This document shows positions 1 through 54,256 of a stretch of 64,000 nucleotides of DNA, piece by piece. The DNA comes from Candidatus Zixiibacteriota bacterium (lineage in GTDB: Bacteria; Desulfobacterota; Binatia; UBA9968). Location of the stretch: assembly GCA_035574315.1 (NCBI GenBank), contig DATLYW010000031.1, forward strand, positions 68,574 through 132,573, written 5' to 3'. The notes under the pieces were generated by a model that saw only the letters and a program-made list of their open reading frames with translations, had not been told where the DNA came from and made no database searches. Each line of letters begins with the position of its first letter. The first letter of the stretch is position 1. The translations under genes and the position numbers were made by a program.

Positions 1-426
1 CCGCGAGCTCCGTTGCCCCGCAGAAGGGCGGCGCAACCGCACCGAGCCCAGCTTCCCGACGGCCGCTTTCGCCGGGAGGTTTTCCGCTGCCCTCATTGGG
101 GTTTGCCCCCGGCTGAGGGACCAGCGGAATCAACAGGAGCAAGCCCGCGAAGACGGCGCTTTGCTGCGCGCTTTCACCGGTCGGGAAAACGGCTCCGCTT
201 TTATCTGCGCCGCTCGGAACCCCCGTTACGTGATCGATGAGGACCATGCCGGCACGCCGGGAGAGCAAGAGGGGTGCCAGGCACTGACCCGCCGCCCCGT
301 TTCATCGGCGGAACGCGGCGATTCTTTAGTTTTTCTTTGCGACAACCGCGAGGTGGCAGTCGAAGTCGCATGCCACGAAGACTCCCATGCGACGGAGAAA
401 ATTCCCGGAGGGGGAAAGGGTTGCAT

Positions 427-6869: not shown

Positions 6870-6882
<13 letters not shown>
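6454..6882 (-). CDS. flgB: Flagellar basal-body rod protein FlgB; internal ATG of the longer ORF
   Basis: FlgB motif [18 protein letters not shown] and C-terminal [10 protein letters not shown]. Start MAGLRLFS chosen because the upstream part of the ORF overlaps the response-regulator gene. Confidence 0.8.
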
Positions 6883-8232
<1,350 letters not shown>

Positions 8233-8258
<26 letters not shown>

Positions 8259-9492
8259 CGCTTCGCGTCTCCTCGGCCGCAGGCAGGCAGACGTTGAACT
8301 GGCTGCCGCGTCCGGGCGTCGACAGAACTTCGATCGAGCCGTGGTGCGCGTGGACGATCTTGTGCGTCAGCGCCAGGCCAAGCCCGGTCCCGTTCTTTTT
8401 CGTGGTGAAGAACGGGTCGAAGATCCGCTCCCGGTTCTCCGGTGGAATGCCGCCGCCTTCGTCGATGACCTTGATCTCGACGGCCCGGTGGATCCGCCCG
8501 TTCATCGTGGCGAAAGGCGCCATTTCCGCTTTGAGTTGCACCCGCCCGCCCGCGGGCATCGCTTCCTTGGCGTTGACCACGAGGTTGAGCAGCGCCTGAA
8601 CCAGCAAACCGCGGTCGCCCCAGATCGGCGGCAGGCCGGGCTGAATGGCGAACGCGAGCGACCACGGCGGATCATTGAACAGCGGTACGCATTCCACGAG
8701 CAGGTCTTTCATCAGCAAAGGCACCGGCAGGAGATCGGGGGAGATCGACGGCTCCGCGGCGAAGCACAGCAGGCGCGAGAGCGTGGCGTGCAGCCGGCGC
8801 GCGGCCGCGAGGATCTCCTCGGCCGCCCGCCGCGGGTCCTCGACCGCATTTTCCTTGAGCAGCGATGCGTAGAGCTCGATCCCGCCGAGGGGATTTCGCA
8901 CCTGGTGCGCGAGCTCCGACGCCATCAGGCCTAGCGAAGCCAGCCGGCGCGTCCGCGCGGCCTCCGCTTCGAGGCGCTTCAGCGTGGTGGTGTCCTGGAA
9001 AATCACGACGTAGTCGCTGCGGGAGCCTCCCGCCGCCACCTCCGAGACCACGAAGTGGAGCGGCCTCACGATCCCGTCGGGTCCCTGAATCATCTTCTCG
9101 CATTCCAGAGGGAGAAAGCTCCTGTCGCCGCGCCGGAGCCTGGCGGCCAGTGTTTTTCCCAGCAGCTGCCCGGCGCGCTCCGCGTCGATTTCCCCCGCCA
9201 GCTCGTTCAAGCGCCGATTGGCGAACGTCGGCTGCAGATCGCGACCGAGGATGAGGACCCCGGCGTTGAGGCTTTCGAGCACCGAGAGGAGATACGCCCG
9301 GGCTTCTTCCCGTTCCCGCAGGCTCTTTTCGAGCTCGCGGTGCTGGCTTTCGAGCTCGCGCGTCAGGTGCTGAGCGCGCTCCTCGAGCCTGCGGTATTCC
9401 CGAATCAACTCCAGGCTGTTCTGATTGAACCAGCCGATGAGATGCTGGAGCGACTCGACCTCGATCTCCGGTTCGCTGACCGCAATAGTCAT
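8233..9492 (-). CDS. Cytoplasmic PAS sensor histidine kinase, FlrB/FleS-like
   Basis: H-box [15 protein letters not shown]1/G2 boxes ([23 protein letters not shown]), no TM segment. ATG at 9492 preceded by GGAGG. Confidence 0.8.
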
Positions 9493-9589
9493 TCCTTGCC
9501 TCCGTTCCCGCGCGGCGGACGCGTCGGCTTCTGCCCCGAGCAAGCTCCGTGCCACGGTTTTCACCGAGGGCACGAGAGTTACTCGGCTC

Positions 9590-10705
9590 TCAGGCGCATC
9601 CTCGCGTCTGCCCGTGAGCCGCGGCCACGGGCGGTGTCAAAGAAAAGTACCGCTCCGTCAGGATCCCGACGCCGCCGCCCGCGGGCGCCAGGCGCGGCTG
9701 CAGCATGCCCTTCTTGCGCAGGCGCTCGATCAACGTGGTGCGATTCAAACGGAGCAGCTCGGCGGCGGCGGTCTTGTTGCCGCGGCTGCGCTCGAGCGCC
9801 TGACGAATGAAGCCGTTTTCGATACTTTCGAGGACGCCGTCGAGGTCCACGCCCTCGTCGGGAAGCGATACCTCGGCGGCCGCCGCGCTCCGCCGCGCCG
9901 CCGGCTGGAGCACGTAGTCGGGCAGCTCGCCCACCCGGATCACCCCGTCCTCGTTCAGGACCACGAGCCGCTCGATGAGATTCTCCAGCTCGCGCACGTT
10001 TCCCGCCCATTCGTAGCTTTCGAGGGCCTGCATCGCCGCGGGATCGATCTCGAGAGGCCCTTTGCCCTTGCGCCGCCCGTGAAGCGAAAGGAAATGGCGG
10101 ACGAGAAGCGGGATGTCGCCCCTGCGCTCGCGCAGCGGCGGAAGCTCCAGCGGAAGCACGTTCAGACGATAGAAGAGATCCTCGCGAAACTTCCCTTCAC
10201 GAACCGCCGCCCGCAGGTCCCGGTTGGTTGCCGCGACGACCCGGACGTCAACCTGCACCGGATGGTCGCTTCCGAGCGGCTCGAACCGTCGCTCCTGCAG
10301 CACGCGCAGCAACTTCACCTGCAGCTTCGGGCTCATCTCGCCGATCTCGTCGAGGAACAAAGTCCCCCTGTGGGCGAGCTGGAAGCGGCCTTGCCGGGCG
10401 TGAATCGCGCCGGTGAACGCGCCGCGCACGTGGCCGAACAGCTCGCTTTCGAGCAGCTCCTCGGGAATGGCCCCGCAGTTGACCGGAACGAACGAGCTGT
10501 CGCGTCGATGGCTGAACTGGTGGATTGCACGGGCGGCAAGCTCCTTGCCGGTCCCGCTTTCACCGGTGATCAGGACCGTGGCGTCGCTTTGCGCCATCTT
10601 TCTGACGAGCTCCTGGATCCGACGCATGGCAAAGCTCTCCCCGACCATCGCCGCAAACGCTTCGCTGCCCCTTTCCTGCGCCGCTCCGAGAACCCGATTG
10701 TCCAT
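9590..10705 (-). CDS. Sigma-54 enhancer-binding protein lacking a receiver/sensor domain (AAA+ plus HTH only)
   Basis: Walker [23 protein letters not shown]-terminal HTH. Only ~15 aa precede the AAA+ domain. ATG at 10705 with GGGAGG SD; the annotated M at 10720 is a TTG. Confidence 0.8.
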   Translation of the reverse strand: MDNRVLGAAQERGSEAFAAMVGESFAMRRIQELVRKMAQSDATVLITGESGTGKELAARAIHQFSHRRDSSFVPVNCGAIPEELLESELFGHVRGAFTGAIHARQGRFQLAHRGTLFLDEIGEMSPKLQVKLLRVLQERRFEPLGSDHPVQVDVRVVAATNRDLRAAVREGKFREDLFYRLNVLPLELPPLRERRGDIPLLVRHFLSLHGRRKGKGPLEIDPAAMQALESYEWAGNVRELENLIERLVVLNEDGVIRVGELPDYVLQPAARRSAAAAEVSLPDEGVDLDGVLESIENGFIRQALERSRGNKTAAAELLRLNRTTLIERLRKKGMLQPRLAPAGGGVGILTERYFSLTPPVAAAHGQTRGCA

Positions 10706-11028
10706 TCGACCTCCCGTCAAAGCCTTGTCGCGTCAGAAAAACGTTGGCCTTGCCGCCGAGCAAAACAGAGGCCAGCAGGAACGAAGCCGCCGCCGCCGCG
10801 CCTAAGTTGCCGACATTTTCGCTGAAAGCTTCGCCCCGCGGCGTGCCGCAACGCCGATCGTGCGGTGGCAAAAATTCGACGCTTACCCGGGCGGCGTCGA
10901 GAAATTGTCGCCGGAGCGCGGCACGCAACAAAGCCTACGGAATAGGCCGCGGCCGCTGCGCCGGCGCGAAAAAAGCGCGGGCCGGGCGGCTGCTTCGCGG
11001 CAGGATCAGGGGCGGGCGGCGGGAGGGA

Positions 11029-11745
11029 TCACTCCTCGCCGTTGACCTTTTCGAGATATTGTCTCATCGCCTTGCGGCGAACGCGAATCGTTCTTTTTTC
11101 CACCTTGAGAATCCCTTTTGCGCGAAGGTCGCGCAGGCTGCGGGAAAGCGTTTCCGGGGCGGTCGAAACGGCCTGGGCGAGCTCCTTGTTGGAAAGCGGG
11201 ATCTCCACGACCTCTTCCTCCGAGCCGGCGCGGTCCAACAAGTTCACGAGATGCTCGAGCAACAGCGCCACCCGTTGCTCGACCGGCAGCCTTGCCATCC
11301 CGACGCGCCGGTAGAGGCGAAACAGATTCTCCGAGAAATGGCGCGCGAGCTGGAGAGCGAGCGCGGGATGGCGCTCGCCGAGCAGCCGGAGCTGACGCCA
11401 GCCCATCCGTCCGATCTCGACCTGTCCCCCGGTGGTGACCGCGGCACAGGGATGGCTCGCCGCGGCGCCGTCACTGACGCCGCTGATGATGCTGCAGGGG
11501 ACCGCTAGGTCCACGATCGCTTCCTCCCCTCCAGGCACAACCGTCGTCAATTTCACGACGCCGCGGCAAATGAGATAGACTCCGGTGACCGGCTCGCCCT
11601 GATGGAAGATGAACTTTCCCCTGCCGGCCACCGAGTAGCGGGCGAGCCCATCCGAAAATTCCTTGCAGGCTTTTTCCCCCACTCCCTTCAGGAACCCCTC
11701 CTCCCGGTGCGGGCAGTCGAGGCAGGTTTTCTGCATGCCGGACAT
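11029..11745 (-). CDS. Crp/Fnr-family transcriptional regulator, FNR-like (N-terminal Cys cluster; E--SR recognition helix)
   Basis: cNMP-binding fold plus C-terminal HTH containing ETLSRSLRDL (FNR-type E..SR). N-terminal C-x2-C...C residues at positions 8, 11 and 27. Confidence 0.8.
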   Translation of the reverse strand: MSGMQKTCLDCPHREEGFLKGVGEKACKEFSDGLARYSVAGRGKFIFHQGEPVTGVYLICRGVVKLTTVVPGGEEAIVDLAVPCSIISGVSDGAAASHPCAAVTTGGQVEIGRMGWRQLRLLGERHPALALQLARHFSENLFRLYRRVGMARLPVEQRVALLLEHLVNLLDRAGSEEEVVEIPLSNKELAQAVSTAPETLSRSLRDLRAKGILKVEKRTIRVRRKAMRQYLEKVNGEE

Positions 11746-11789
11746 TGTCGCGCCAATAAATTAAATAGCCTACTTTATAGTGAAAAGTC

Positions 11790-11803
11790 TTGACGTAAAT
11801 CAA
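11790..11803. promoter_or_regulatory. FNR/CRP-type palindrome TTGAC-GTAA-ATCAA
   Basis: Read directly. Matches the FNR consensus TTGAT-N4-ATCAA at 8/10 bases, i.e. at every position outside the T5/A10 pair. Sits in the AT-rich divergent region between the fnr-like gene and the sigma-54 activator gene. Confidence 0.55.
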
Positions 11804-11811
11804 TGGTAATT

Positions 11812-11825
11812 TTGACTCGGATCAA
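11812..11825. promoter_or_regulatory. Second FNR/CRP-type palindrome TTGAC-TCGG-ATCAA, 22 bp centre-to-centre from the first
   Basis: Read directly. Two helical turns from the first box. Confidence 0.55.
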
Positions 11826-11955
11826 TGCAGGAGTTTGGAGACAGTTGTATGGTGGAAGAAAAACAACTCCCTCGATTTCGCCAACGAGGGCTCAGCAAGT
11901 CAGGAATTCGGCCTCGACGAAGCTTGGCTGACGCATAACCGGCTTCACCGCTCAA

Positions 11956-12960
11956 ATGGCACCGACTCACCCCGTTTCGATCATCGGCGAGCATCCGCTC
12001 ATGGTAAAGATCAAGGCTCTGGTCGACCGAGTTGCGGCTACGGACGCAACAGTGCTCGTAACCGGAGAAAGCGGGACCGGGAAAGAGATCGTCGCCCGCG
12101 CGCTCCATGCCTCCAGCGCCCGCAATCACGGGCCGTTCGTTCCCGTAAACTGTGCCGCGATCCCGCACGACCTGCTCGAAAGCGAGCTGTTCGGCCACGT
12201 GCGCGGCGCGTTCACCGGCGCGCTCGGCGCCCGCGCCGGCATGTTCCAGCTGGCCGACGGCGGCACGCTTTTCCTCGACGAGGTCGGGGAAATGCCGCTC
12301 GCGCTTCAGGCCAAGCTCCTCCGGGTTCTCCAGGAGCGTGAGGTCCGCCCGATCGGCGCCGACCAGAGCGTCCCGGTCGACGTCCGCGTGATCGCGGCGA
12401 CGAACAAGGACCTGGTGCGCGAAGTCGAAAAAGGGACCTTCCGCGAGGATCTCTTTTACCGCCTCCAGGTGATTCCGATTCACCTGCCGCCGCTGCGGGC
12501 CCGCCGCTCGGACATTCCGCTGATGATCGATTTCTTCCTCGAGCGGGCGAACCGCCGGCACAACAGCTCGGTTCGCATTGCGCCCGAGGTGGGCATTCAT
12601 CTATGGGAGTACGACTGGCCGGGAAACGTGCGCGAGCTGGAAAACGTGATCGAGCGGATGGTGCTCCTGTGCGAGGGGGGGCGGATCGAGATGCAGGACC
12701 TTCCTCCCAACATTTACAACTTCGTCTCCGACAAGAAGATTCCGCAGCCGACCCTCAACGGCAAAGAGCTGGACCTGCGGACCGCGCTCAAGCAGTTCGA
12801 GTACCGGCTCATCGACGAAGCCCTGCGCCTCACCGACGGGAACAAAGCCATGGCCGCGCGCATGCTCAAGGTCAAGCGAACCACGCTGCTCGCCAAACTG
12901 CGAAACCGAGACTTGAGGAGGGACGAGGTTGAGAACAAGCGACTTCCCCTTGCCAGCTAG
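11956..12960 (+). CDS. Sigma-54 enhancer-binding protein, AAA+ plus HTH only (no receiver or sensor)
   Basis: Starts directly in the AAA+ domain. Walker [15 protein letters not shown], arginine finger region, C-terminal HTH ([10 protein letters not shown]). Confidence 0.85.
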
Positions 12961-13399
12961 CCGGTCCTCCGGGTCGAGGATCCTGGTGGTCGACGACAAC
13001 AAGGACCTGGTGGAGTTTCTCCGTCGCCTGCTCTCACACCACGGATTCGACGTGCGCTGCGCGTTCAGCGGCGCCGAATGCCTGGAAGCCGTACGGCGCG
13101 AGCCCGTCGACCTGATCGTTCTCGACGTGATGATGCCGAAGACCGACGGCCTCCAGGTGTGTGCCGAGCTCAAGCGCACCGCGCCTTCGATTCCCGTGAT
13201 GCTCCTTACCGCGAGGGACGACCTTGCCACCCGAGCCGCCGCCATGTCGCTCGGAGCGAGCGAGTTCGTCGCCAAGCCGATCAACGTTGCGGATTTCCTC
13301 GCGCGCGTGGGAACCCAACTGGAGATGCGCGGCTGGCAGAAGACCATCGACGCCGCTTTTGCCAGAACGAAAGGAGACGACACGCCCGCGGGGAAATGA
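12929..13399 (+). CDS. Stand-alone CheY-like receiver domain protein (TTG start inferred; alternative GTG at 12986)
   Basis: ILVVDDN...LIVLDVMMP...LLTARDD...FVAKP: all phospho-acceptor pocket residues present. Overlaps the stop of the upstream activator gene by ~30 nt. GGAGG lies 8 nt upstream of the TTG. Confidence 0.7.
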
Positions 13400-13571: not shown

Positions 13572-13588
13572 TTGGCACCATCTTTGCT
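13572..13588 (+). promoter_or_regulatory. Sigma-54 (-24/-12) promoter TTGGCAC-CATCT-TTGCT
   Basis: Exact TGGCAC-N5-TTGC with GG-N10-GC spacing. Lies 75 bp upstream of the 67-aa ORF and 170 bp downstream of the activator/REC pair. Confidence 0.6.
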
Positions 13589-13664: not shown

Positions 13665-13868
13665 ATGAACCCGCAGAAAATCAGGCTCCTCGAAGAGCAA
13701 TACCGGCGGGCTGCCAGGGAGCTTTACGAGCACGAGGGAATGCTCGAGATCGACGACCAGGCCGCGGTCACGCTGCCCGACGGCGAGGGCAGCTACGGCG
13801 CTTACGTGCAGGCCTGGGTATGGGTCGGCAGCGAGGAGGCAAAGCGGCACCGCCCGACGGGTTCGTAG
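13665..13868 (+). CDS. Small hypothetical protein (67 aa), likely sigma-54 dependent
   Basis: High GC3 codon usage typical of the window; ATG preceded by AGAGAAAAAA; no recognisable domain. Confidence 0.45.
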   Translation: MNPQKIRLLEEQYRRAARELYEHEGMLEIDDQAAVTLPDGEGSYGAYVQAWVWVGSEEAKRHRPTGS

Positions 13869-15512: not shown

Positions 15513-16475
15513 ATGATCACCGCAAGCGAGCTGAACGGGGTATTGGCGATGATGCCGGCTTTCGCCACACCGGATGCTGTGGACATTCGGGCTACGCAAA
15601 CCATCGCCGTCGACAACCTGAAGGAAGCGGTCGATAAGATCATCAAGGACGGGGTCCACAACATCGCCACCACGGGGACCTACGGCGAGTGCTACAACCT
15701 GCTGTTCGACGAGTTCAGGGTGCTGGCCGCGGCGACGACGGAAGCAGTCAACAAGCGAGTCCCGCTGTTCATCGGCTGCACCAGCCCCAATCCGAGGGAA
15801 GTCGTCCAGAAGATGAACTTCGTCAAGGATCTCGGAGCGGACGGCGTGCTCCTCGGCGTACCTTACTACGAGACGCTGCCGGTGGCGGATGCGATCCGCT
15901 TCTACCACGACATCGCGGACCTCTTCCCCACTCTTGCAATCGTGATCTACCACAACCCCGAGAATCACAAGTTCACCATTCCGGTCGCAGCCTTCAAAGA
16001 ACTGGTCAAAAAACCGAACATCGTGGGGATGAAGGACAGCCACCGGACGACGCAGGCTTTCATGAGCCTGCAAAAGATCATCAAGGGGAAGATCAGCGTC
16101 TTCGTGAACCAGACGCAGCTCTATCCTTACTATCAGTTGGGAGCTGCGGGCTGCTGGTCCACCGAGGTGTGGATGGGCCCGTGGCCGGTGCTCTACCTGC
16201 TCGACGTCGTGCGGCGGGGAGACGTTCAGAAGGCGATCGAGGTCATCGACGATCTGATCGGCGACGGGAGCGGCGGCCGGCCGGTCCCGGGAGCCGGAAA
16301 CAAGCGCCCGGCCGAGTTCGCCGATTACTGCAAGGTCGGCCCGACGCGCGTTCCGTTTCTCAATTTTCCGGAAGCGGAGCTGGCCAAGGCGAAACGGCGG
16401 GCCGAGCACTGGATGAGGCTCAATGCCAAGTACCGGCCGCTCGTGGAGGCGGCGCGCGCCCGAACCGCCGCCTGA
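15513..16475 (+). CDS. Dihydrodipicolinate synthase / N-acetylneuraminate lyase family (DapA-like) class I aldolase
   Basis: TIM-barrel DHDPS-family features (GTTGE, MKDS, conserved Lys region); GGAGG SD. Confidence 0.7.
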   Translation: MITASELNGVLAMMPAFATPDAVDIRATQTIAVDNLKEAVDKIIKDGVHNIATTGTYGECYNLLFDEFRVLAAATTEAVNKRVPLFIGCTSPNPREVVQKMNFVKDLGADGVLLGVPYYETLPVADAIRFYHDIADLFPTLAIVIYHNPENHKFTIPVAAFKELVKKPNIVGMKDSHRTTQAFMSLQKIIKGKISVFVNQTQLYPYYQLGAAGCWSTEVWMGPWPVLYLLDVVRRGDVQKAIEVIDDLIGDGSGGRPVPGAGNKRPAEFADYCKVGPTRVPFLNFPEAELAKAKRRAEHWMRLNAKYRPLVEAARARTAA

Positions 16476-24271: not shown

Positions 24272-26314
24272 TTACTGCGGCTCTTCGGTTTCGCCGTGAC
24301 CGTGCCCCTTGGTATTGAGCATGCCGTATTTCTCCAGGCGGTGGCGGAGGGATCGATAATTGATGCCCAGAATCTCGGCAGCGCGCTTCTGCACCCCGTT
24401 GGCCCGTTTGAGGGCGCCCAAAAGGATGCATTTTTCGTGGGTTTCGAGCTCAGCGTCGAGAGAAAGCCCCTTGCTGAAGAAAAGATCGGCGCCGCCGGGC
24501 GCGGTTTTCTCGAAAAGCTCCGCTTCTTCGGCAATCGGGGTTCCCTTGACGTGCGCGGGAAGGTCGTCCTCCGTGAGCGCCGCAGAGGTCGCGACCGCGA
24601 CCGCATGCTCCATGATGTTCTCCAGCTCGCGCACGTTTCCCGGGTAGGAATAATTCACCAGATGCATCAGCGCGCCGCTCGAGATCTCCTCGATCTTCTT
24701 CTGCTGCAGCTCGGTGAACTTGCGGAAGAAATAGTGCACGAGCGCCGGGATGTCCTCCTTGCGGTTTCGAAGCGGAGGCATCGTGATCTGCACGACGTTC
24801 AGCCGATAGAAAAGATCCTCGCGAAAACGCCCCTCCTCCATCTCCCTTCTCAGGTCCTTGTTGGTCGCCGAGATCACGCGGACGTCGACCTTGACCGGCT
24901 TGTTACCCCCCACCGGCGTGAAGGTCCTGTCCTGGAGCACACGCAGTAGCTTGACCTGGAGATGAAGCGGCAGCTCGCCCACCTCGTCGAGAAAAATCGT
25001 TCCCTGATCTGCCTGCTTGAACAGACCGGGATGATCGGCAACCGCCCCGGTGAACGCCCCTCGGACATGGCCGAAGAGCTCGCTCTCGATCAGATTCTCG
25101 GGAATCGCGCCGCAGTTGACGGCGACGAACGGCTTGTTCTTCCGCGGCCCGTTGAGGTGGATGGCGCGCGCGACGAGCTCCTTGCCGGTGCCGCTTTCCC
25201 CGATGATCAGGACGTTAGTGCTGCTCGAAGCGACCTTTTGCACCAGCTGGTTGATCTTTTCGATTCCGGGGCTCCTGCCGATCACTCCTTCGAAGTGGAA
25301 CTCGCCCGGTCCCCGGGCCTCCTGCTCCTTCGCCTTGCGCAGCTCCTCTTCGAGCCGGAGCTTCTCCTCCATTTCTTTCTGTTTGGTGATGTCGTCGAAG
25401 ATCGAAAGATAGCCGATCAACTGCTGCCCGGCGTCGCTGAGGGGAGCGAGCGTCAGGCGCAGCTGCTTCTGCGCCCCCTGCGCCGTCGCGAACGAGATCT
25501 CGTCGGCGACCACGCGTGGCCCGCTCTTCGATCCGTCGAAGCGATACGAGAGTCCGGGGAAAATCTCGTCGAGTCGCTTTCCACGGACCGTTTCCTCGGC
25601 CAGTCCGGTCAGGTTCTGCGCTTGCACGTTGAAATAGTTGACGCGACCGCCAACGTCCGTGATGGCGATTCCGCTGCCGACTCCCTGGAGCAGCGCCTGC
25701 TTCAACGCGTCGAGCTCCTGATAATCGAGCTGCTTCGCCTTGAGCGCCTTTTCCGTCTCGGCGAGCTTCTTCGCCAAAAACCCGCCGAGGCCCGCGATCG
25801 CGAAGAAACTTCCCGCGTTGAAGACGTGAGGCATCACCGCGGCCCACGAGGCGGGCACGCCTGCGCCGCGGTGCAACGTGTAGGCCCAGCTGAGCAGCGC
25901 CACGTAACAGAGGCTCGAGAAGATCGCCGTGAAAAACGCCCCGCGGTAAAAGAGCAGGATGGCGCCGTTCATGACCGCCAGGTTGTAGAGGAACGGAAAC
26001 GGGCTCGCGAAATCCCCCGTGATCCAGATGATGCCGGTGATGAGCAGGACGTCGAAATCGACCTGCAGGTGGGCGAAGAAGCGCAGATCCTTGATCCGCG
26101 GCAGGGCGAGGGCCGAGATCACGGAAATCGCGTACGCGAGGATCAGCGGAACCGAGAGCGTGTAGAGAAACCGGAGATCGCTTTGCTGGTTGAAGAAATG
26201 GAACAGCGCCGTGGCGCCGAGAAAAAAAGAGACGATGACCACTCGGAGAAAGAGCAGCCATCGCATCTTTTCGGTCAAATCCTTGCGCTCGTCAATCACT
26301 TTGCGACCGCCCAC
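24272..26314 (-). CDS. Membrane-bound sigma-54 activator: PilS-like 6-TM domain + PAS + AAA+ (GAFTGA) + HTH. Start is GTG at 26314 or ATG at 26266
   Basis: Six N-terminal TM helices, PAS region, Walker [16 protein letters not shown]-terminal HTH. No HisKA/HATPase and no receiver. Confidence 0.8.
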   Translation of the reverse strand: MGGRKVIDERKDLTEKMRWLLFLRVVIVSFFLGATALFHFFNQQSDLRFLYTLSVPLILAYAISVISALALPRIKDLRFFAHLQVDFDVLLITGIIWITGDFASPFPFLYNLAVMNGAILLFYRGAFFTAIFSSLCYVALLSWAYTLHRGAGVPASWAAVMPHVFNAGSFFAIAGLGGFLAKKLAETEKALKAKQLDYQELDALKQALLQGVGSGIAITDVGGRVNYFNVQAQNLTGLAEETVRGKRLDEIFPGLSYRFDGSKSGPRVVADEISFATAQGAQKQLRLTLAPLSDAGQQLIGYLSIFDDITKQKEMEEKLRLEEELRKAKEQEARGPGEFHFEGVIGRSPGIEKINQLVQKVASSSTNVLIIGESGTGKELVARAIHLNGPRKNKPFVAVNCGAIPENLIESELFGHVRGAFTGAVADHPGLFKQADQGTIFLDEVGELPLHLQVKLLRVLQDRTFTPVGGNKPVKVDVRVISATNKDLRREMEEGRFREDLFYRLNVVQITMPPLRNRKEDIPALVHYFFRKFTELQQKKIEEISSGALMHLVNYSYPGNVRELENIMEHAVAVATSAALTEDDLPAHVKGTPIAEEAELFEKTAPGGADLFFSKGLSLDAELETHEKCILLGALKRANGVQKRAAEILGINYRSLRHRLEKYGMLNTKGHGHGETEEPQ

Positions 26315-41916: not shown

Positions 41917-42342
41917 ATGGACGGTCGACAGCGTTACCGCATCATTCCGCGGCAGTCCGAGCTGGCCGTTCGCATTGTCGGAGAGTCTCAGTCCGAGCTG
42001 TTCGCCAATGCTGGCTTCGCCCTCTTCGACCTCATGACCGAACTCGACAAGGTCGAAGTCAAGGAGCGGGTTCAGCTCGAAGTGGATGGGGCAGACCTCG
42101 ACGATCTGATGGTCAACTGGACCCGTGAGCTGCTTTACCTCTATCAAGGGAGCGGCTATCTTTTAAGGGAGTTTCTCGTGCGCGAGGCGTCCGAGACCCG
42201 GGTGCGCGCGGAAGTCTGCGGGGAAAAGATCGATCCCGACCGACACGAGATCAAAAGGGAGATCGTCGGTGTGGCCCTGCACCAGAGCCGCCTGCAAAAG
42301 ACCGGAAACCAGTGGACGGCCCAGCTCGTCTTCGAGATCTGA
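41917..42342 (+). CDS. Archease family protein
   Basis: Internal ATG of the longer ORF. N-terminal YRIIP..LAVRIVGESQSELFANAGFALFDLMT and C-terminal HEIKREIVGVALH match the archease family. Confidence 0.6.
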   Translation: MDGRQRYRIIPRQSELAVRIVGESQSELFANAGFALFDLMTELDKVEVKERVQLEVDGADLDDLMVNWTRELLYLYQGSGYLLREFLVREASETRVRAEVCGEKIDPDRHEIKREIVGVALHQSRLQKTGNQWTAQLVFEI

Positions 42343-43752: not shown

Positions 43753-44938
43753 CGCCTACCGCATTCCGATCGTCGACCTGCGCGCGCAGTACCGGGTGAT
43801 CGAAACGGAGGTCCGCGCCGCTCTCGACGAGGTTCTGCAGAGCCAGCGGTTCGTTCTCGGACCGGCGGTGGCGCGCTTCGAGGAGCGCTTTGCGGCCTAC
43901 CTGCGCGGCGGCCGCGCCGTAGGAGTCGCCTCCGGGAGCGACGCCCTGCTCCTGGCCTTGATGGCCCTCGGCATCGGGCCCGGCGACGGCGTGCTGGTGC
44001 CGACCTTCACCTTTTTCTCCACCGCCTCCGCCGTGGTCCGCCTCGGGGCGCGGCCGCTTTTTCTCGATATCGACCCGAAAAGCTACACGCTTTCGGCGGC
44101 CGACGTCGCCGAGTTCCTCGACCGGAGCTGCCGCGAGGAGGAAGGCCGACTCAAACATCCGCAAAGCGGGACGACCGTGAGGGCGATCCTGCCGGTTCAC
44201 CTTTTCGGCCGCTGCGCGCCGATGCCCGACCTGTGCGAGACCGCGCGCCGGCGGGGACTGTGGGTCGTCGAGGACGTGGCGCAGGCCTGCGGCGCCCGGC
44301 TGGTCTCGGACGGAGGGGAGAAACTCGCCGGCACCTTCGGCGACTTCGGCTGTTTTTCCTTCTTTCCGAGCAAGACCCTGGGCGGTTACGGCGACGGCGG
44401 CGCGGTCGTCGCCGCGTCCGAAGCCGCCGCCGAGCGCCTCCGCGTCCTGCGGATGCACGGCGAGCGCGTCAAGTACCGCCACGAGCTGATCGGCATCAAC
44501 TCGCGCCTCGACTCGCTCCAGGCGGCGGTGCTTTCGGTCAAGCTCCGCCACCTCGACCGCTGGTGCGCGCAACGCGTCGAGCGCGCGGCGACCTACGACC
44601 GGCTGTTCCGGGAAAGCGGTCTGCCCGGCGCCGGAATCCTCGCCCTGCCGGAGCTTTGCCCGGGACTGGCGCATGTCTTCAACCACTACGTCGTCCGCGC
44701 AGAGCGCCGCGACGACCTCCGGAGCCATCTAGCCGACCGGGCCATTCAGGCGGAAATTTATTACCCGCTGCCGCTTCACCTGCAGCCCAGCTTTGCCCAT
44801 TTCGGCCACCGGCCGGGAGATTTCCCCCGGGCGGAACGGGCCTCCCGGGAGGTGCTGGCCTTGCCGCTCTACCCGGAGCTTTCCGACGCGCAGCAGCGAA
44901 CGGTGGTGGAGGCCGTCGCCGAATTCTACCGCGTATAG
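43745..44938 (+). CDS. DegT/DnrJ/EryC1/StrS-family PLP-dependent sugar aminotransferase (GTG start inferred)
   Basis: DegT family hallmarks including conserved Lys region FSFFPSKTLGGYGDGG; overlaps the HD gene stop. Confidence 0.8.
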   Translation: MSDAYRIPIVDLRAQYRVIETEVRAALDEVLQSQRFVLGPAVARFEERFAAYLRGGRAVGVASGSDALLLALMALGIGPGDGVLVPTFTFFSTASAVVRLGARPLFLDIDPKSYTLSAADVAEFLDRSCREEEGRLKHPQSGTTVRAILPVHLFGRCAPMPDLCETARRRGLWVVEDVAQACGARLVSDGGEKLAGTFGDFGCFSFFPSKTLGGYGDGGAVVAASEAAAERLRVLRMHGERVKYRHELIGINSRLDSLQAAVLSVKLRHLDRWCAQRVERAATYDRLFRESGLPGAGILALPELCPGLAHVFNHYVVRAERRDDLRSHLADRAIQAEIYYPLPLHLQPSFAHFGHRPGDFPRAERASREVLALPLYPELSDAQQRTVVEAVAEFYRV

Positions 44939-51253: not shown

Positions 51254-51269
51254 CGTTGCGCGCCAGCGT

Positions 51270-51345
51270 GTGAAAAAAAATTTTTTTACTTTTTTTGTTG
51301 CAAAGGAAATGGAAAAGGATTATGAAATTTTCCTCGGTTGTTTGG
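51270..51345. other. AT-rich tract (candidate DNA unwinding element) in the hemL-dnaA intergenic region
   Basis: GTGAAAAAAAATTTTTTTACTTTTTTTGTTGCAAAGGAAATGGAAAAGGATTATGAAATTTTCC in an otherwise ~65% GC sequence. Confidence 0.45.
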
Positions 51346-51507
51346 GAGAAAATTTTTCGCGCCGTGTCAGCCGCGACCGGCGCAAGCGTCACGACGTTTT
51401 TTCCAGAGACTTCTCTTTCCGCGGTACCAAGGCTTTTCCATGGGTAGCTTGTTGACGTTTTTGCAGCGTGGCCTTCGAAAGAGGAGGCTTTTCGCATGGG
51501 TCTTGGA

Positions 51508-51529
51508 GTTATCCACAGCTGTGGATAAC
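51508..51529. promoter_or_regulatory. Perfect 22-bp palindrome GTTATCCACAGCTGTGGATAAC = two inverted consensus DnaA boxes (TTATCCACA / TGTGGATAA)
   Basis: Read directly, 50 nt upstream of the dnaA start. Confidence 0.7.
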
Positions 51530-51579
51530 TCTGTTCGTAAGTACAACCCGGAATCGCCTGGAAATCCGCTCTCTTAGCG

Positions 51580-52920
51580 GTGTACGTCATGGAACTATGG
51601 GAAAAAGCCCTTGTCCATCTGAGAGAAAAGCTAGGGAAACAGAATTTCGAGACATGGATCAAACCGGTGCGGGCGGAGTCGATTAACGATGACACGCTTG
51701 TCCTCGAAGTGCCCAACAAGTTCTTTCGCGACTGGCTGTCAGAGCACTACCTGTCGCAGATCGCTGCCGTCCTTTCGGCGCTATCGCACAAGCAGATCCG
51801 CGTCTCGCTCGCCGTCAATAACCGCGTGCAACCGAAGGAAGCGCCGGCACGCGCACAAAAAAAAGAAGAGCCGGAGCCGCCGAGGGGGCAGCGATTCAAT
51901 AACTTAATCCCGAAGTACACCTTCGAGAATTTCGTTATCGGCGCGAGCAACCAGTTCGCTCACGCCGCCTCGATGGCCGTGGCCAACCAGCCGGGAGACC
52001 ACTACAACCCTCTGTTCATCTACGGCGGGGTCGGTCTTGGTAAGACGCACCTGGCCAACGCGATCGGGCACCGTGCGGTCGCTCACCGGCCGGGTCTCAA
52101 GGTGCTTTACCTGAGCTCGGAATCTTTCATGAACGAGCTGATCGCGTCGCTGCGCCGCGACCGCATGGACGAATTCAAGACGAAATTCCGCAACATCGAT
52201 ATCCTGATCCTCGACGACGTCCAGTTCATCGCCGGCAAGGAAAGGACGCAGGAGGAGTTCTTTCACACATTCAACTCGCTCTACGAGACGCACAAACAGA
52301 TCGTGATCACGTCCGACAAGTTCCCCAAGGAGATCCCAGGGCTGGAGGACCGCCTGCGCAACCGCTTCGAGTGGGGGCTGATCGCAGACATCCAGCCGCC
52401 CGACATGGAAACCCGGGTGGCGATCCTGCAGAAAAAAGCGGAGAGCGAGGGCGTTCAGCTGCCGCACGAAGTCGCCATTTTCCTGGCTTCCAACATCGAC
52501 TCGAATGTCCGCGAACTCGAGGGGTCGTTAACCCGCCTCGGCGCCTTCGCCTCCCTCACGAAGTCGGTGATCACCGTTGAACTGGCCAAGGAGGTCCTGC
52601 ACAACACCCTCAAGAGCTCCCACAAGGAGATCACGATCGAGAGCATCCAGAAAACGATCTGCGAGTACTACAACATCAAGCTCGGCGATCTCAAGGCCAA
52701 GAGGCGCACCAAGAACATCGCGATTCCCAGGCAGGTCGCGATGTACCTATGCCGCAAGTATACGGAAACCTCGTTCCCGGCGATCGGCGACAAGTTCGGC
52801 GGCCGCGACCACTCCACGGTCATCCATGCCTCCAAAGCCATCGAGAAACGGCTCAAGGAGGATCCCTACATGCAGAGCACAATTGAAAAGCTCGAGCGGA
52901 CGCTGAATGTCCGCAAGTAG
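51580..52920 (+). CDS. dnaA: Chromosomal replication initiator DnaA
   Basis: AAA+ Walker A GGVGLGKTHL, sensor motifs, C-terminal DNA-binding domain (...VAMYLCRKYT...DHSTVIHA). Confidence 0.97.
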   Translation: MYVMELWEKALVHLREKLGKQNFETWIKPVRAESINDDTLVLEVPNKFFRDWLSEHYLSQIAAVLSALSHKQIRVSLAVNNRVQPKEAPARAQKKEEPEPPRGQRFNNLIPKYTFENFVIGASNQFAHAASMAVANQPGDHYNPLFIYGGVGLGKTHLANAIGHRAVAHRPGLKVLYLSSESFMNELIASLRRDRMDEFKTKFRNIDILILDDVQFIAGKERTQEEFFHTFNSLYETHKQIVITSDKFPKEIPGLEDRLRNRFEWGLIADIQPPDMETRVAILQKKAESEGVQLPHEVAIFLASNIDSNVRELEGSLTRLGAFASLTKSVITVELAKEVLHNTLKSSHKEITIESIQKTICEYYNIKLGDLKAKRRTKNIAIPRQVAMYLCRKYTETSFPAIGDKFGGRDHSTVIHASKAIEKRLKEDPYMQSTIEKLERTLNVRK

Positions 52921-53077
52921 CTTGTGCACATCCTGTGCGCAAACCGTGGCCGCAAACGGGGATAACCACCTGCCTTTGCTTCCCGCGCCGGGCCAGACCC
53001 AAAAAGCGGGCGCTGCGGTCCGGCACTAGGAACAAGCCAAGTCGGCGCCAGCGCTAGATTCTCAGCGCTTGTTGCTC

Positions 53078-53125
53078 TTGTCCACAGTGCTATTGCTACT
53101 GCGGATTTAATTCATATATACAAGG
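53078..53125. promoter_or_regulatory. dnaA-dnaN intergenic region: near-consensus DnaA box TTGTCCACA (53078-53086) plus AT-rich GGATTTAATTCATATATACAAGG
   Basis: Read directly; one mismatch to TTATCCACA. Confidence 0.4.
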
Positions 53126-53149
53126 AAGGATAAGGGTCGGGAGGTTCCT

Positions 53150-54256
53150 ATGGAATTAAACGCTACGCGAGGCGATCTCCTCGCCGCGCTCTACTGGACT
53201 CAGAGCATCGTCGAGCGGCGCAATACCATGCCGATCCTGGCCAACGTGCTGATCGACGCGCAAAAAGACGGTGTTCGCATCACGGCGACTGATCTCGAGG
53301 TTGGAGTCCGGGCGACGGTGGAGGGGCAGATAGGGAAAGAAGGGACGGTGACAGTCAACGCGAAAAAGCTCTACGAGATCGTTCGCGAGCTTCCGGGCGA
53401 GCAGGTGCGGGTGAAGAAGCTGGAAAACGAGTGGGTCGAGATCAGAAGCGGAAAGGCGGTTTTCAAGATCGTGGGCATGGAGGCACGGGAGTATCCGCAG
53501 TTTCCTAGGTTCAGCACGGAAGGGCTCGTGTCGGCGGCAGCGAGCGTCCTGCGAGGTATGATCGAGCGGACGATTTTTTCGGTGTCTATGGATGAAACCC
53601 GGTACAGCCTGAACGGCGTCTACATGGAGCAGGGGGATGGAAGTAAAGTGCGGATGGTGGCAACGGACGGCCACCGTCTGGCTTTCGAGGAACAGTCCCT
53701 TGGAAATTTCGGCTTGGCTAAGGGAGTGATCCTGCCGAGGAAGGGGGTGGCTGAGGTCAAAAAGCTCCTTGATTCCGGTGAGGACGGCACGGTCTCGATC
53801 GGTTTCCGGGAAAATATGGCCCTGATCGTCAGGGACAAGGTGGAGCTTTTCATGCGGTTGATCGACGGCGATTTTCCTGAATACAGCAAGGTAATTCCGA
53901 AGGGAAACCCGAACGTCGCCAAGCTGGACCACGACGAATTCCTGCAGGCGCTGCGGCGTGTGTCGATCCTGTCGAGCGAGCGTTACAAGGGCGTGAAGAT
54001 GGAATTCAGGGACCGGCGCCTGCTGATCTCGACGAGCAACCCGGACCTCGGGGAAGCGGTTGAGGAAGCCGAGGTGGAATACACCGGGAAGCCCGTAACG
54101 ATCGGCTTCAACGCGCGATACCTGATCGATGTGCTGAACGTTCTCGAGGCGGACTGCGAGGTCAAGATGGAGCTGAAGGACGAGGTGAGCCCGAGCGTGA
54201 TCCGGAGGTGGGGGGACGAGACCTACCTCTATGTTCTGATGCCGATGAGGCTCTAG
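53150..54256 (+). CDS. dnaN: DNA polymerase III beta sliding clamp DnaN
   Basis: Three-domain clamp, 368 aa, follows dnaA. Confidence 0.95.
   Translation: MELNATRGDLLAALYWTQSIVERRNTMPILANVLIDAQKDGVRITATDLEVGVRATVEGQIGKEGTVTVNAKKLYEIVRELPGEQVRVKKLENEWVEIRSGKAVFKIVGMEAREYPQFPRFSTEGLVSAAASVLRGMIERTIFSVSMDETRYSLNGVYMEQGDGSKVRMVATDGHRLAFEEQSLGNFGLAKGVILPRKGVAEVKKLLDSGEDGTVSIGFRENMALIVRDKVELFMRLIDGDFPEYSKVIPKGNPNVAKLDHDEFLQALRRVSILSSERYKGVKMEFRDRRLLISTSNPDLGEAVEEAEVEYTGKPVTIGFNARYLIDVLNVLEADCEVKMELKDEVSPSVIRRWGDETYLYVLMPMRL

Follow-up and report, generated by a model that had tools for sequence, protein, structure and literature searches.

The stretch of DNA analysed here, hereafter called the window, is 64 kb long and contains a gene for a CRP/FNR-family regulator (11029-11745, minus strand; 238 aa from the first ATG) and a gene for a sigma-54 enhancer-binding protein (11956-12960, plus strand; 334 aa), which diverge from a 210-bp gap that holds two FNR-type boxes. 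The regulator carries the Pfam domains cNMP_binding and HTH_Crp_2. The sigma-54 activator consists of an AAA+ domain and a Fis-type HTH only and has no N-terminal sensory domain; a longer N-terminus is ruled out by an in-frame stop 10 codons upstream of its ATG. The end of the activator gene is overlapped by a stand-alone receiver-domain gene (12929-13399, plus strand). On the other side, downstream of the regulator gene and on the minus strand, lie a second sensor-less activator gene (9590-10720), a histidine kinase gene and a gene for an NtrC-type response regulator.

Box 1, TTGACGTAAATCAA (TTGATTTACGTCAA on the minus strand), spans 11790-11803 with its centre at 11796.5 and is proximal to the regulator gene. 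Box 2, TTGACTCGGATCAA, spans 11812-11825 with its centre at 11818.5 and is distal to the regulator gene and proximal to the activator gene. The two boxes are 22 bp apart from centre to centre, which leaves 8 bp between the 14-bp sites. Both 14-mers are thus found where the original prediction had placed them, as two palindromes 22 bp apart at 11790-11825. An FNR box is defined as a 14-bp inverted repeat, TTGAT-N4-ATCAA, in a promoter region, and both intergenic sites conform to this definition with one mismatch each, a T to C change at position 5. The prediction that the sites are FNR-type is therefore borne out, and its count of 8/10 matching half-site positions has to be corrected to 9/10 for each site. 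Specifically, the pattern TTGAY-N4-ATCAA occurs twice in 64 kb, both times as these boxes, against 0.08 occurrences expected. The only other 9/10 site in the window, at 44486, lies inside an aminotransferase-like ORF, and a regulon scan inside the 64-kb window found no further intergenic site of at least 9/10; the matches with one mismatch that the window scan gave at 42134 and 45133 adjoin genes without a tie to respiration. Additionally, no second pair of boxes (at least 7/10 each, at spacings of 20-24 or 31-33 bp) is present elsewhere in the 64-kb window. The gap that holds the boxes has a G+C content of 48%, compared with about 64% for the whole 64-kb window. A single box of at least 8/10 appears in about 11% of shuffled upstream regions, and two such boxes at 21-22 bp appear with P ~5e-5 (from 20,000 shuffled versions of the 260-nt region that precedes the regulator gene).

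The ATG at 11736, which gives a protein of 235 aa, is the likelier start of the regulator, because it is also the start of the NCBI copy and, as is usual in the family, puts a Met four residues ahead of the first Cys. Two Pfam models, PF00027 (32.2 bits, cut-off 27.5) and PF13545 (46.7 bits, cut-off 27), place the protein in the CRP/FNR superfamily, and solved CRP/FNR structures match it with a best E-value of 4.5e-12. The NCBIfam equivalog models for CRP, NtcA, Fnr, FixK and FnrL give 22-42 bits against cut-offs of 211-300 (CRP, 42.4 against 266; Fnr, NF008365, 35.9 against 228; FixK, 34.9 against 300; FnrL, 32.4 against 300). The regulator is a distant member of the CRP/FNR family that does not reach the model score of FNR sensu stricto. 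Its relatives were obtained by an exhaustive HMMER search, which gave roughly 270 representatives at E < 1e-10 and, among these, a tight group of about 27 at E < 1e-20, with 28-43% identity; a word-indexed protein search gave almost none of them, and a single-protein scan of the genome-contig collection with the regulator returned only an unrelated Bacillus CRP gene. In the subfamily alignment, residues E198, S201 and R202 of the recognition helix PETLSR are at least 90% conserved, and the helix aligns with ETISR of E. coli FNR, which puts it in the E-x-x-S-R class of FNR-type recognition helices. The E..SR helix that had been ascribed to the adjacent regulator is therefore present and, within the subfamily, nearly invariant. 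The accompanying label "fnr-like" has to be qualified, given the shortfall against the Fnr model, the lack of an equivalent of FNR Cys122 and the lack of a third N-terminal cysteine.

The cysteines of the regulator are at positions 8, 11, 27, 60, 84 and 100. A profile comparison with a hand-entered sequence of E. coli FNR (98.9% probability) aligns C8 and C11 with FNR Cys20 and Cys23. In the consensus of the subfamily, Cys-x2-Cys-x5-Cys corresponds to FNR Cys20, Cys23 and Cys29, with position 17 matching Cys29; in the window protein, position 17 is Gly. No subfamily member has a cysteine aligned with FNR Cys122, and the window protein lacks the complete four-ligand set (Cys20, Cys23, Cys29 and Cys122) of FNR sensu stricto. 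Within the subfamily, Cys60 is invariant, Cys8 and Cys11 are conserved, and Cys17 and Cys84 are nearly mutually exclusive: Cys84 is found in 1 of 14 members with Cys17 and in 9 of 10 members without it, the window protein being among these 10. This pattern suggests that four cysteines hold a putative metal or Fe-S site and that one of these ligands has moved between positions 17 and 84, and common ancestry of the two cysteine types could be an alternative source of it. Compared with E. coli FNR, a [4Fe-4S] oxygen sensor, the subfamily has the same fold, domain order, E..SR helix and N-terminal Cys-x2-Cys, but it has the invariant Cys60 instead of an equivalent of Cys122, and the third ligand position is either an N-terminal Cys or Cys84, rarely both. 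A subfamily that keeps the Cys-x2-Cys of FNR and replaces Cys122 offers a natural test case for how an Fe-S sensor site may be rebuilt. On short contigs, respiratory genes lie near three of the regulator homologues (L010, 1580-1855; L015, 4328-4621; L016, 1113-1772): two of these loci have a gene for a prokaryotic COX4-type oxidase subunit, and one has a gene for a cytochrome c552 nitrite reductase, which weakly suggests that the subfamily is concerned with respiration or redox state.

The regions upstream of the regulator gene were compared in 11 loci, namely the window and ten homologue loci, and boxes of at least 8/10 were scored within 260 nt upstream of the gene. The box-bearing homologues are 33-43% identical to the regulator and lie on unrelated metagenome contigs. 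At least one box is present in 9 of the 11 loci, and two boxes at 21-22 bp are present in six, including the window, with a spacing of 22 bp in five and 21 bp in one; in shuffled upstream regions, such a pair has a chance of 5e-5 to 5e-4 per locus. In particular, pairs with a spacing of 22 bp start at 678 and 700 in the metagenome locus L005, at 742 and 764 in L010 (P0003), at 217 and 239 in L011 (P0004) and at 76 and 98 in L013 (P0007), and the pair with a spacing of 21 bp starts at 741 and 762 in L012 (P0006). The L016 locus (P0013) has sites that start at 244 (7/10), 266 (9/10) and 279 (8/10), with 22 bp between the first two. One perfect 10/10 box, TTGATATAAATCAA, stands alone in the metagenome locus L004, as does one 9/10 box in L015 (P0009), so the second box is not obligatory. 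The most distant homologues, L002 and L003 (P0023 and P0028; 31-32% identity), have no box. Taken together, the boxes give the consensus wTGAT-N4-ATCAw, and TG often comes next.

The DNA around the boxes cannot be aligned between loci, which means that the double box does not stem from recent shared ancestry of the DNA and argues that selection maintains both the double box and its spacing. The two-turn spacing to which importance had been attached thus recurs at 22 bp, and once at 21 bp, upstream of homologues with only 33-43% identity and looks functional, and the presence of the double box upstream of the homologues' own genes supports the autoregulation that had been suggested along with it. 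A further feature, not found in the window, is the sequence GTCA directly before the distal box in four loci (L011, 209-230; L012, 735-754; L013, 70-89; L016, 238-257), where the junction of GTCA and box reads TCAATGAT or TCAATGAC; GTCA may be an extra abutting half-site or part of an extended recognition motif.

A sigma-70 consensus scan of 11600-12100 found no promoter, and no -35 hexamer is present at the regulator promoter. In eight of the nine box-bearing loci, the proximal box is followed after exactly 22 nt by a TA-initial hexamer (TATTTA, TAATAG, TAAATA, TAAACT, TACTAA, TATATG, TATGAA and TAAAAC), whereas no other offset between 8 and 40 has one in more than two of the nine. Offset 22 also has the best mean match to TATAAT among those tested, 3.56 compared with 0.56-2.89; the usually conserved T at hexamer position 6 is found in one of nine, and the assignment as a -10 element is by position only. 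In the window, the predicted -10-like hexamer of the regulator promoter is TATTTA (11762-11767, minus strand), 22 nt downstream of box 1, with an implied start at about 11755. The predicted -10-like hexamer of the divergent promoter, which would serve the activator and receiver genes, is TATGGT (11848-11853, plus strand), 22 nt downstream of box 2, with an implied start at about 11860 and a 96-nt leader. The two implied starts are 105 bp apart. Class II sites for FNR or CRP are centred near -41.5 and take the place of the -35 element. If the offset-22 hexamer is a -10 element, the proximal box lies at about -41.5 and the distal box at about -63.5; box 1 is accordingly predicted to stand at -41.5 of the regulator promoter and at -63.5 of the divergent promoter, and box 2 the reverse.

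The distances to the start codon are in line with this register. In seven of the nine box-bearing loci, 40.5-60.5 nt separate the centre of the proximal box from the start codon, and a Shine-Dalgarno sequence cannot be seen in any of these seven. The closeness of the box to the start codon, together with the missing Shine-Dalgarno sequence, agrees with leaders that are very short or missing and lends support to the transcription starts given above; the subfamily transcripts are probably leaderless or nearly so. In L004, L011, L013, L015, L016 and the window (11736-11767), the predicted transcription start and the start codon are 0-10 nt apart. The start codon is further away in L005 and L012, at about 150-160 nt from the boxes, and the leaders there measure about 120-150 nt.

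On the activator side of the gap, box 2 with TATGGT 22 nt further on is symmetric with the arrangement at box 1, and the same symmetry is found in L010, with TAAACT on both sides. No TA-initial hexamer is present at this outer position in L011, L012, L013 and L016, which have AATTCT, GACAAG, TTTATT and CTAAAA, respectively. The activator group is widespread and highly conserved, with 70-74% identity in contigs named Binatia or Deltaproteobacteria, and the activator-receiver pair is kept in two orthologous loci, whose activators are 72-74% identical to that of the window. Upstream of the pair, these loci have a same-strand kinase and a LuxR-type regulator, and neither has an FNR-like gene upstream of the activator. 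In one of them, L014, the activator gene has no FNR box upstream, and sites that score 8/10 or better are as frequent across the locus as expected by chance. The divergent neighbours of the FNR-like gene elsewhere are a PAS protein in L010, a GAF protein in L012, a Cache-HAMP histidine kinase in L015 and a PAS-GAF histidine kinase in L002; those in L010 and L012 were considered as orthologues of the activator and rejected, as they have no similarity to it and contain PAS and GAF domains instead. Since orthologues of the activator come without the regulator and L014 comes without boxes, the boxes follow the FNR-like gene and not the activator. Control of the activator by the boxes, as the original prediction had it, gains from the TATGGT hexamer 22 nt downstream of box 2 but is not conserved, and is plausible as a lineage-specific add-on.

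Several further observations concern the activator and its surroundings. An activator of about 320-360 aa and a stand-alone receiver whose genes overlap by about 32 nt are found at 11956-13399 in the window and at 5001-6519 in L014; the pair is kept, at 70-74% identity, in contigs assigned to other phyla, and the receiver may be a detached regulatory domain. Near the pair, L014 as well as the window (15513-16475) has a DHDPS-family gene. We considered and rejected a regulatory RNA or a structured leader ahead of the activator gene (one sub-threshold Rfam match, 18.2 against a gathering threshold of 54.6 bits, E = 0.49; fold z-score 0.34). A sigma-54 promoter in the intergenic region was also rejected: the candidate 'TGGTAATTTTGAC' has the wrong spacing, and there is no consensus match in 11746-11955. 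A scan of viral contigs with the activator gave nothing relevant.

We propose that the two boxes form a tandem operator of the adjacent CRP/FNR-family regulator with autoregulation as its main job, and we put the probability of this reading at roughly 0.6. In such an operator, each box would bind one regulator dimer via the E..SR recognition helix, and both dimers would sit on the same face of the DNA because 22 bp corresponds to about two helical turns. Box 1 would take the class II position, at about -41.5, of the regulator's own promoter; given this position and the absence of a -35 hexamer, the bound regulator would most likely activate that promoter. Another dimer, bound at about -63.5, would make the response sharper or stronger, and in this genome the same pair of dimers could drive both divergent promoters. 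The input signal would probably be sensed by an N-terminal cysteine-ligated metal or Fe-S centre. We infer binding by the regulator, activation rather than repression, cooperativity and the cofactor from the sequence. For dimers 22 bp apart, a steric clash rather than cooperativity is possible, and we know of no study of two FNR dimers only 22 bp apart. With low confidence, we extend the proposal to the subfamily as a whole: the 22-bp double box would be the signature operator of an undescribed subfamily of FNR-like sensors, with a metal or Fe-S centre on Cys8, Cys11, Cys60 and a position-swapped fourth ligand (Cys17 or Cys84), and with dimers that bind cooperatively at about -41.5 and -63.5 relative to the start of a gene with almost no leader; the 8-bp gap between them would be smaller than in any FNR pair that we know to have been studied. 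If true, this would amount to a switch-like positive feedback, which in this genome would also feed a sigma-54 regulatory cascade.

Autoregulation of an FNR-family gene through FNR boxes is textbook knowledge, and the circuit type is ordinary; what sets the present case apart is the uncharacterised subfamily, the conserved geometry of the double box and the non-canonical cysteines. The nearest known layout is that of fnrN in Rhizobium leguminosarum, for which PMC7888657, with reference to Colombo et al. 2000, describes dual anaeroboxes about 32 bp apart and autoregulation, the proximal box overlapping the transcription start and repressing and the distal box activating. In both cases, an FNR-family gene lies behind two TTGAT-N4-ATCAA boxes with one box in an activating position, which in the window is predicted, and those of fnrN are read by its own product. 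However, the fnrN-type layout is not found here: the spacing is 22 bp instead of about 32 bp, the proximal box lies upstream of the predicted -10 element, in a predicted -41.5 register, instead of repressing, and the extra box is placed upstream. Moreover, FnrN has the canonical four FNR cysteines, which the window regulator does not. In E. coli nrdDG, two FNR dimers bind on the same face at -33.5 and -64.5 (bioRxiv 10.1101/2023.05.18.541370), but these sites are 31 bp (three turns) apart instead of 22 bp (two turns), and nrdDG is a target gene, not the regulator's own. In E. coli ubiT-ubiUV, two FNR sites each serve one divergent promoter (bioRxiv 10.1101/2023.03.15.532739); as in the window, two FNR boxes lie in a divergent gap, each about 33-36 nt upstream of one of the opposed starts, which in the window are predicted, but the ubiT-ubiUV sites act separately, no fixed short spacing is reported for them, and neither flanking gene is the regulator. 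At yfiD, FNR bound upstream suppresses activation (PMC3445967). A conserved 22-bp spacing is found in none of fnrN, nrdDG and yfiD as described in these sources, and the 22-bp layout predicts that dimers bind in tandem at -41.5 and -63.5, a spacing beyond those explored for E. coli FNR and CRP.

The ubiT-ubiUV precedent invites the alternative that the boxes are two independent class II sites, one per divergent promoter, whose dimers do not interact. This would fit the TA-initial hexamers 22 nt outside each box in the window and L010, as well as the signalling genes that diverge from the box region in the window, L010, L012 and L015. The main argument against it is that independent sites need no fixed spacing, yet 21-22 bp is kept in six loci. 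Furthermore, the outer-side hexamer is not conserved in L011, L012, L013 and L016, and in L005 the 677 nt that precede the distal box contain no minus-strand ORF of 50 aa or more. We therefore consider independent action of the boxes unlikely. A different arrangement, negative autoregulation, is suggested by a promoter that can be read in the window, with TTGATT and TATAAA (11779-11774) separated by an 18-nt spacer and TATAAA at offset 10. Use of this promoter would place box 1 over the -35 element, so that a bound regulator would occlude it and repress. Repression through FNR-type sites has precedents in the fnrN proximal box (PMC7888657) and in the suppression of yfiD by FNR bound upstream (PMC3445967). 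Nevertheless, this box-derived -35/-10 pair is confined to the window, being absent from L004, L010, L013 and the other loci, its TATAAA fails the promoter scan, and the conserved element is the offset-22 hexamer with its class II geometry, all of which make repression through box 1 quite unlikely.

Two explanations would detach the boxes from the adjacent regulator as their reader. One is that they are real FNR boxes read by another CRP/FNR paralogue, such as a global FNR, with the adjacent gene as a target. Regulators of different subfamilies with an E..SR helix have TTGAT-N4-ATCAA as their common target, FixK acts on the fnrN boxes (PMC7888657), and the search covered 64 kb of the genome. 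The double box, however, travels with the subfamily gene, and not with the activator, across unrelated contigs, for which self-recognition is the simplest account, and a foreign reader appears very unlikely. The other is that the boxes arose by chance, to which the low G+C content of the gap, where AT-rich words form more easily, and the frequency of single boxes in shuffled DNA would lend themselves. Against this, the pair itself is rare in shuffles, both of its members match at 9/10, and it recurs in five further loci at a probability of 5e-5 to 5e-4 each, which leaves a chance origin practically negligible. Taken together, these comparisons leave the autoregulatory tandem operator of the adjacent regulator as the reading that we prefer.

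The surroundings of this operator are rich in genes and sites of the sigma-54 system. Sigma-54 activators are unusually dense at 6870-10720 and 24272-26314, with four in 20 kb; two of them have no sensory domain, a third is of the NtrC type, and the fourth is a membrane PilS-like-PAS fusion beside type IV pilus genes. With an FNR-like gene among these activators, the region looks like a regulatory hub. The sigma-54 consensus TGGCAC-N5-TTGC has three exact matches in the window, at 9540-9554 (minus strand), 13573-13587 (plus strand) and 265-279 (minus strand), against 0.14 expected. The match at 9554-9540 lies about 35 nt before a GGAGG and an ATG at 9492, and because of this the histidine kinase probably starts at 9492 rather than at 9573; the histidine kinase operon looks sigma-54 dependent. 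About 80 nt downstream of the match at 13573, and just past the activator-receiver pair, there is an unannotated 67-aa ORF (13665-13868), a candidate target of the activator. With a redox-type sensor beside several sigma-54 activators and promoters, the locus offers a first testable entry into the transcriptional wiring of Zixibacteria, an uncultivated phylum. Elsewhere in the window, dnaA and dnaN are adjacent (51580-54256) and preceded by a 326-bp gap (51254-51579), and the chromosomal replication origin probably lies in or near the 64-kb window.
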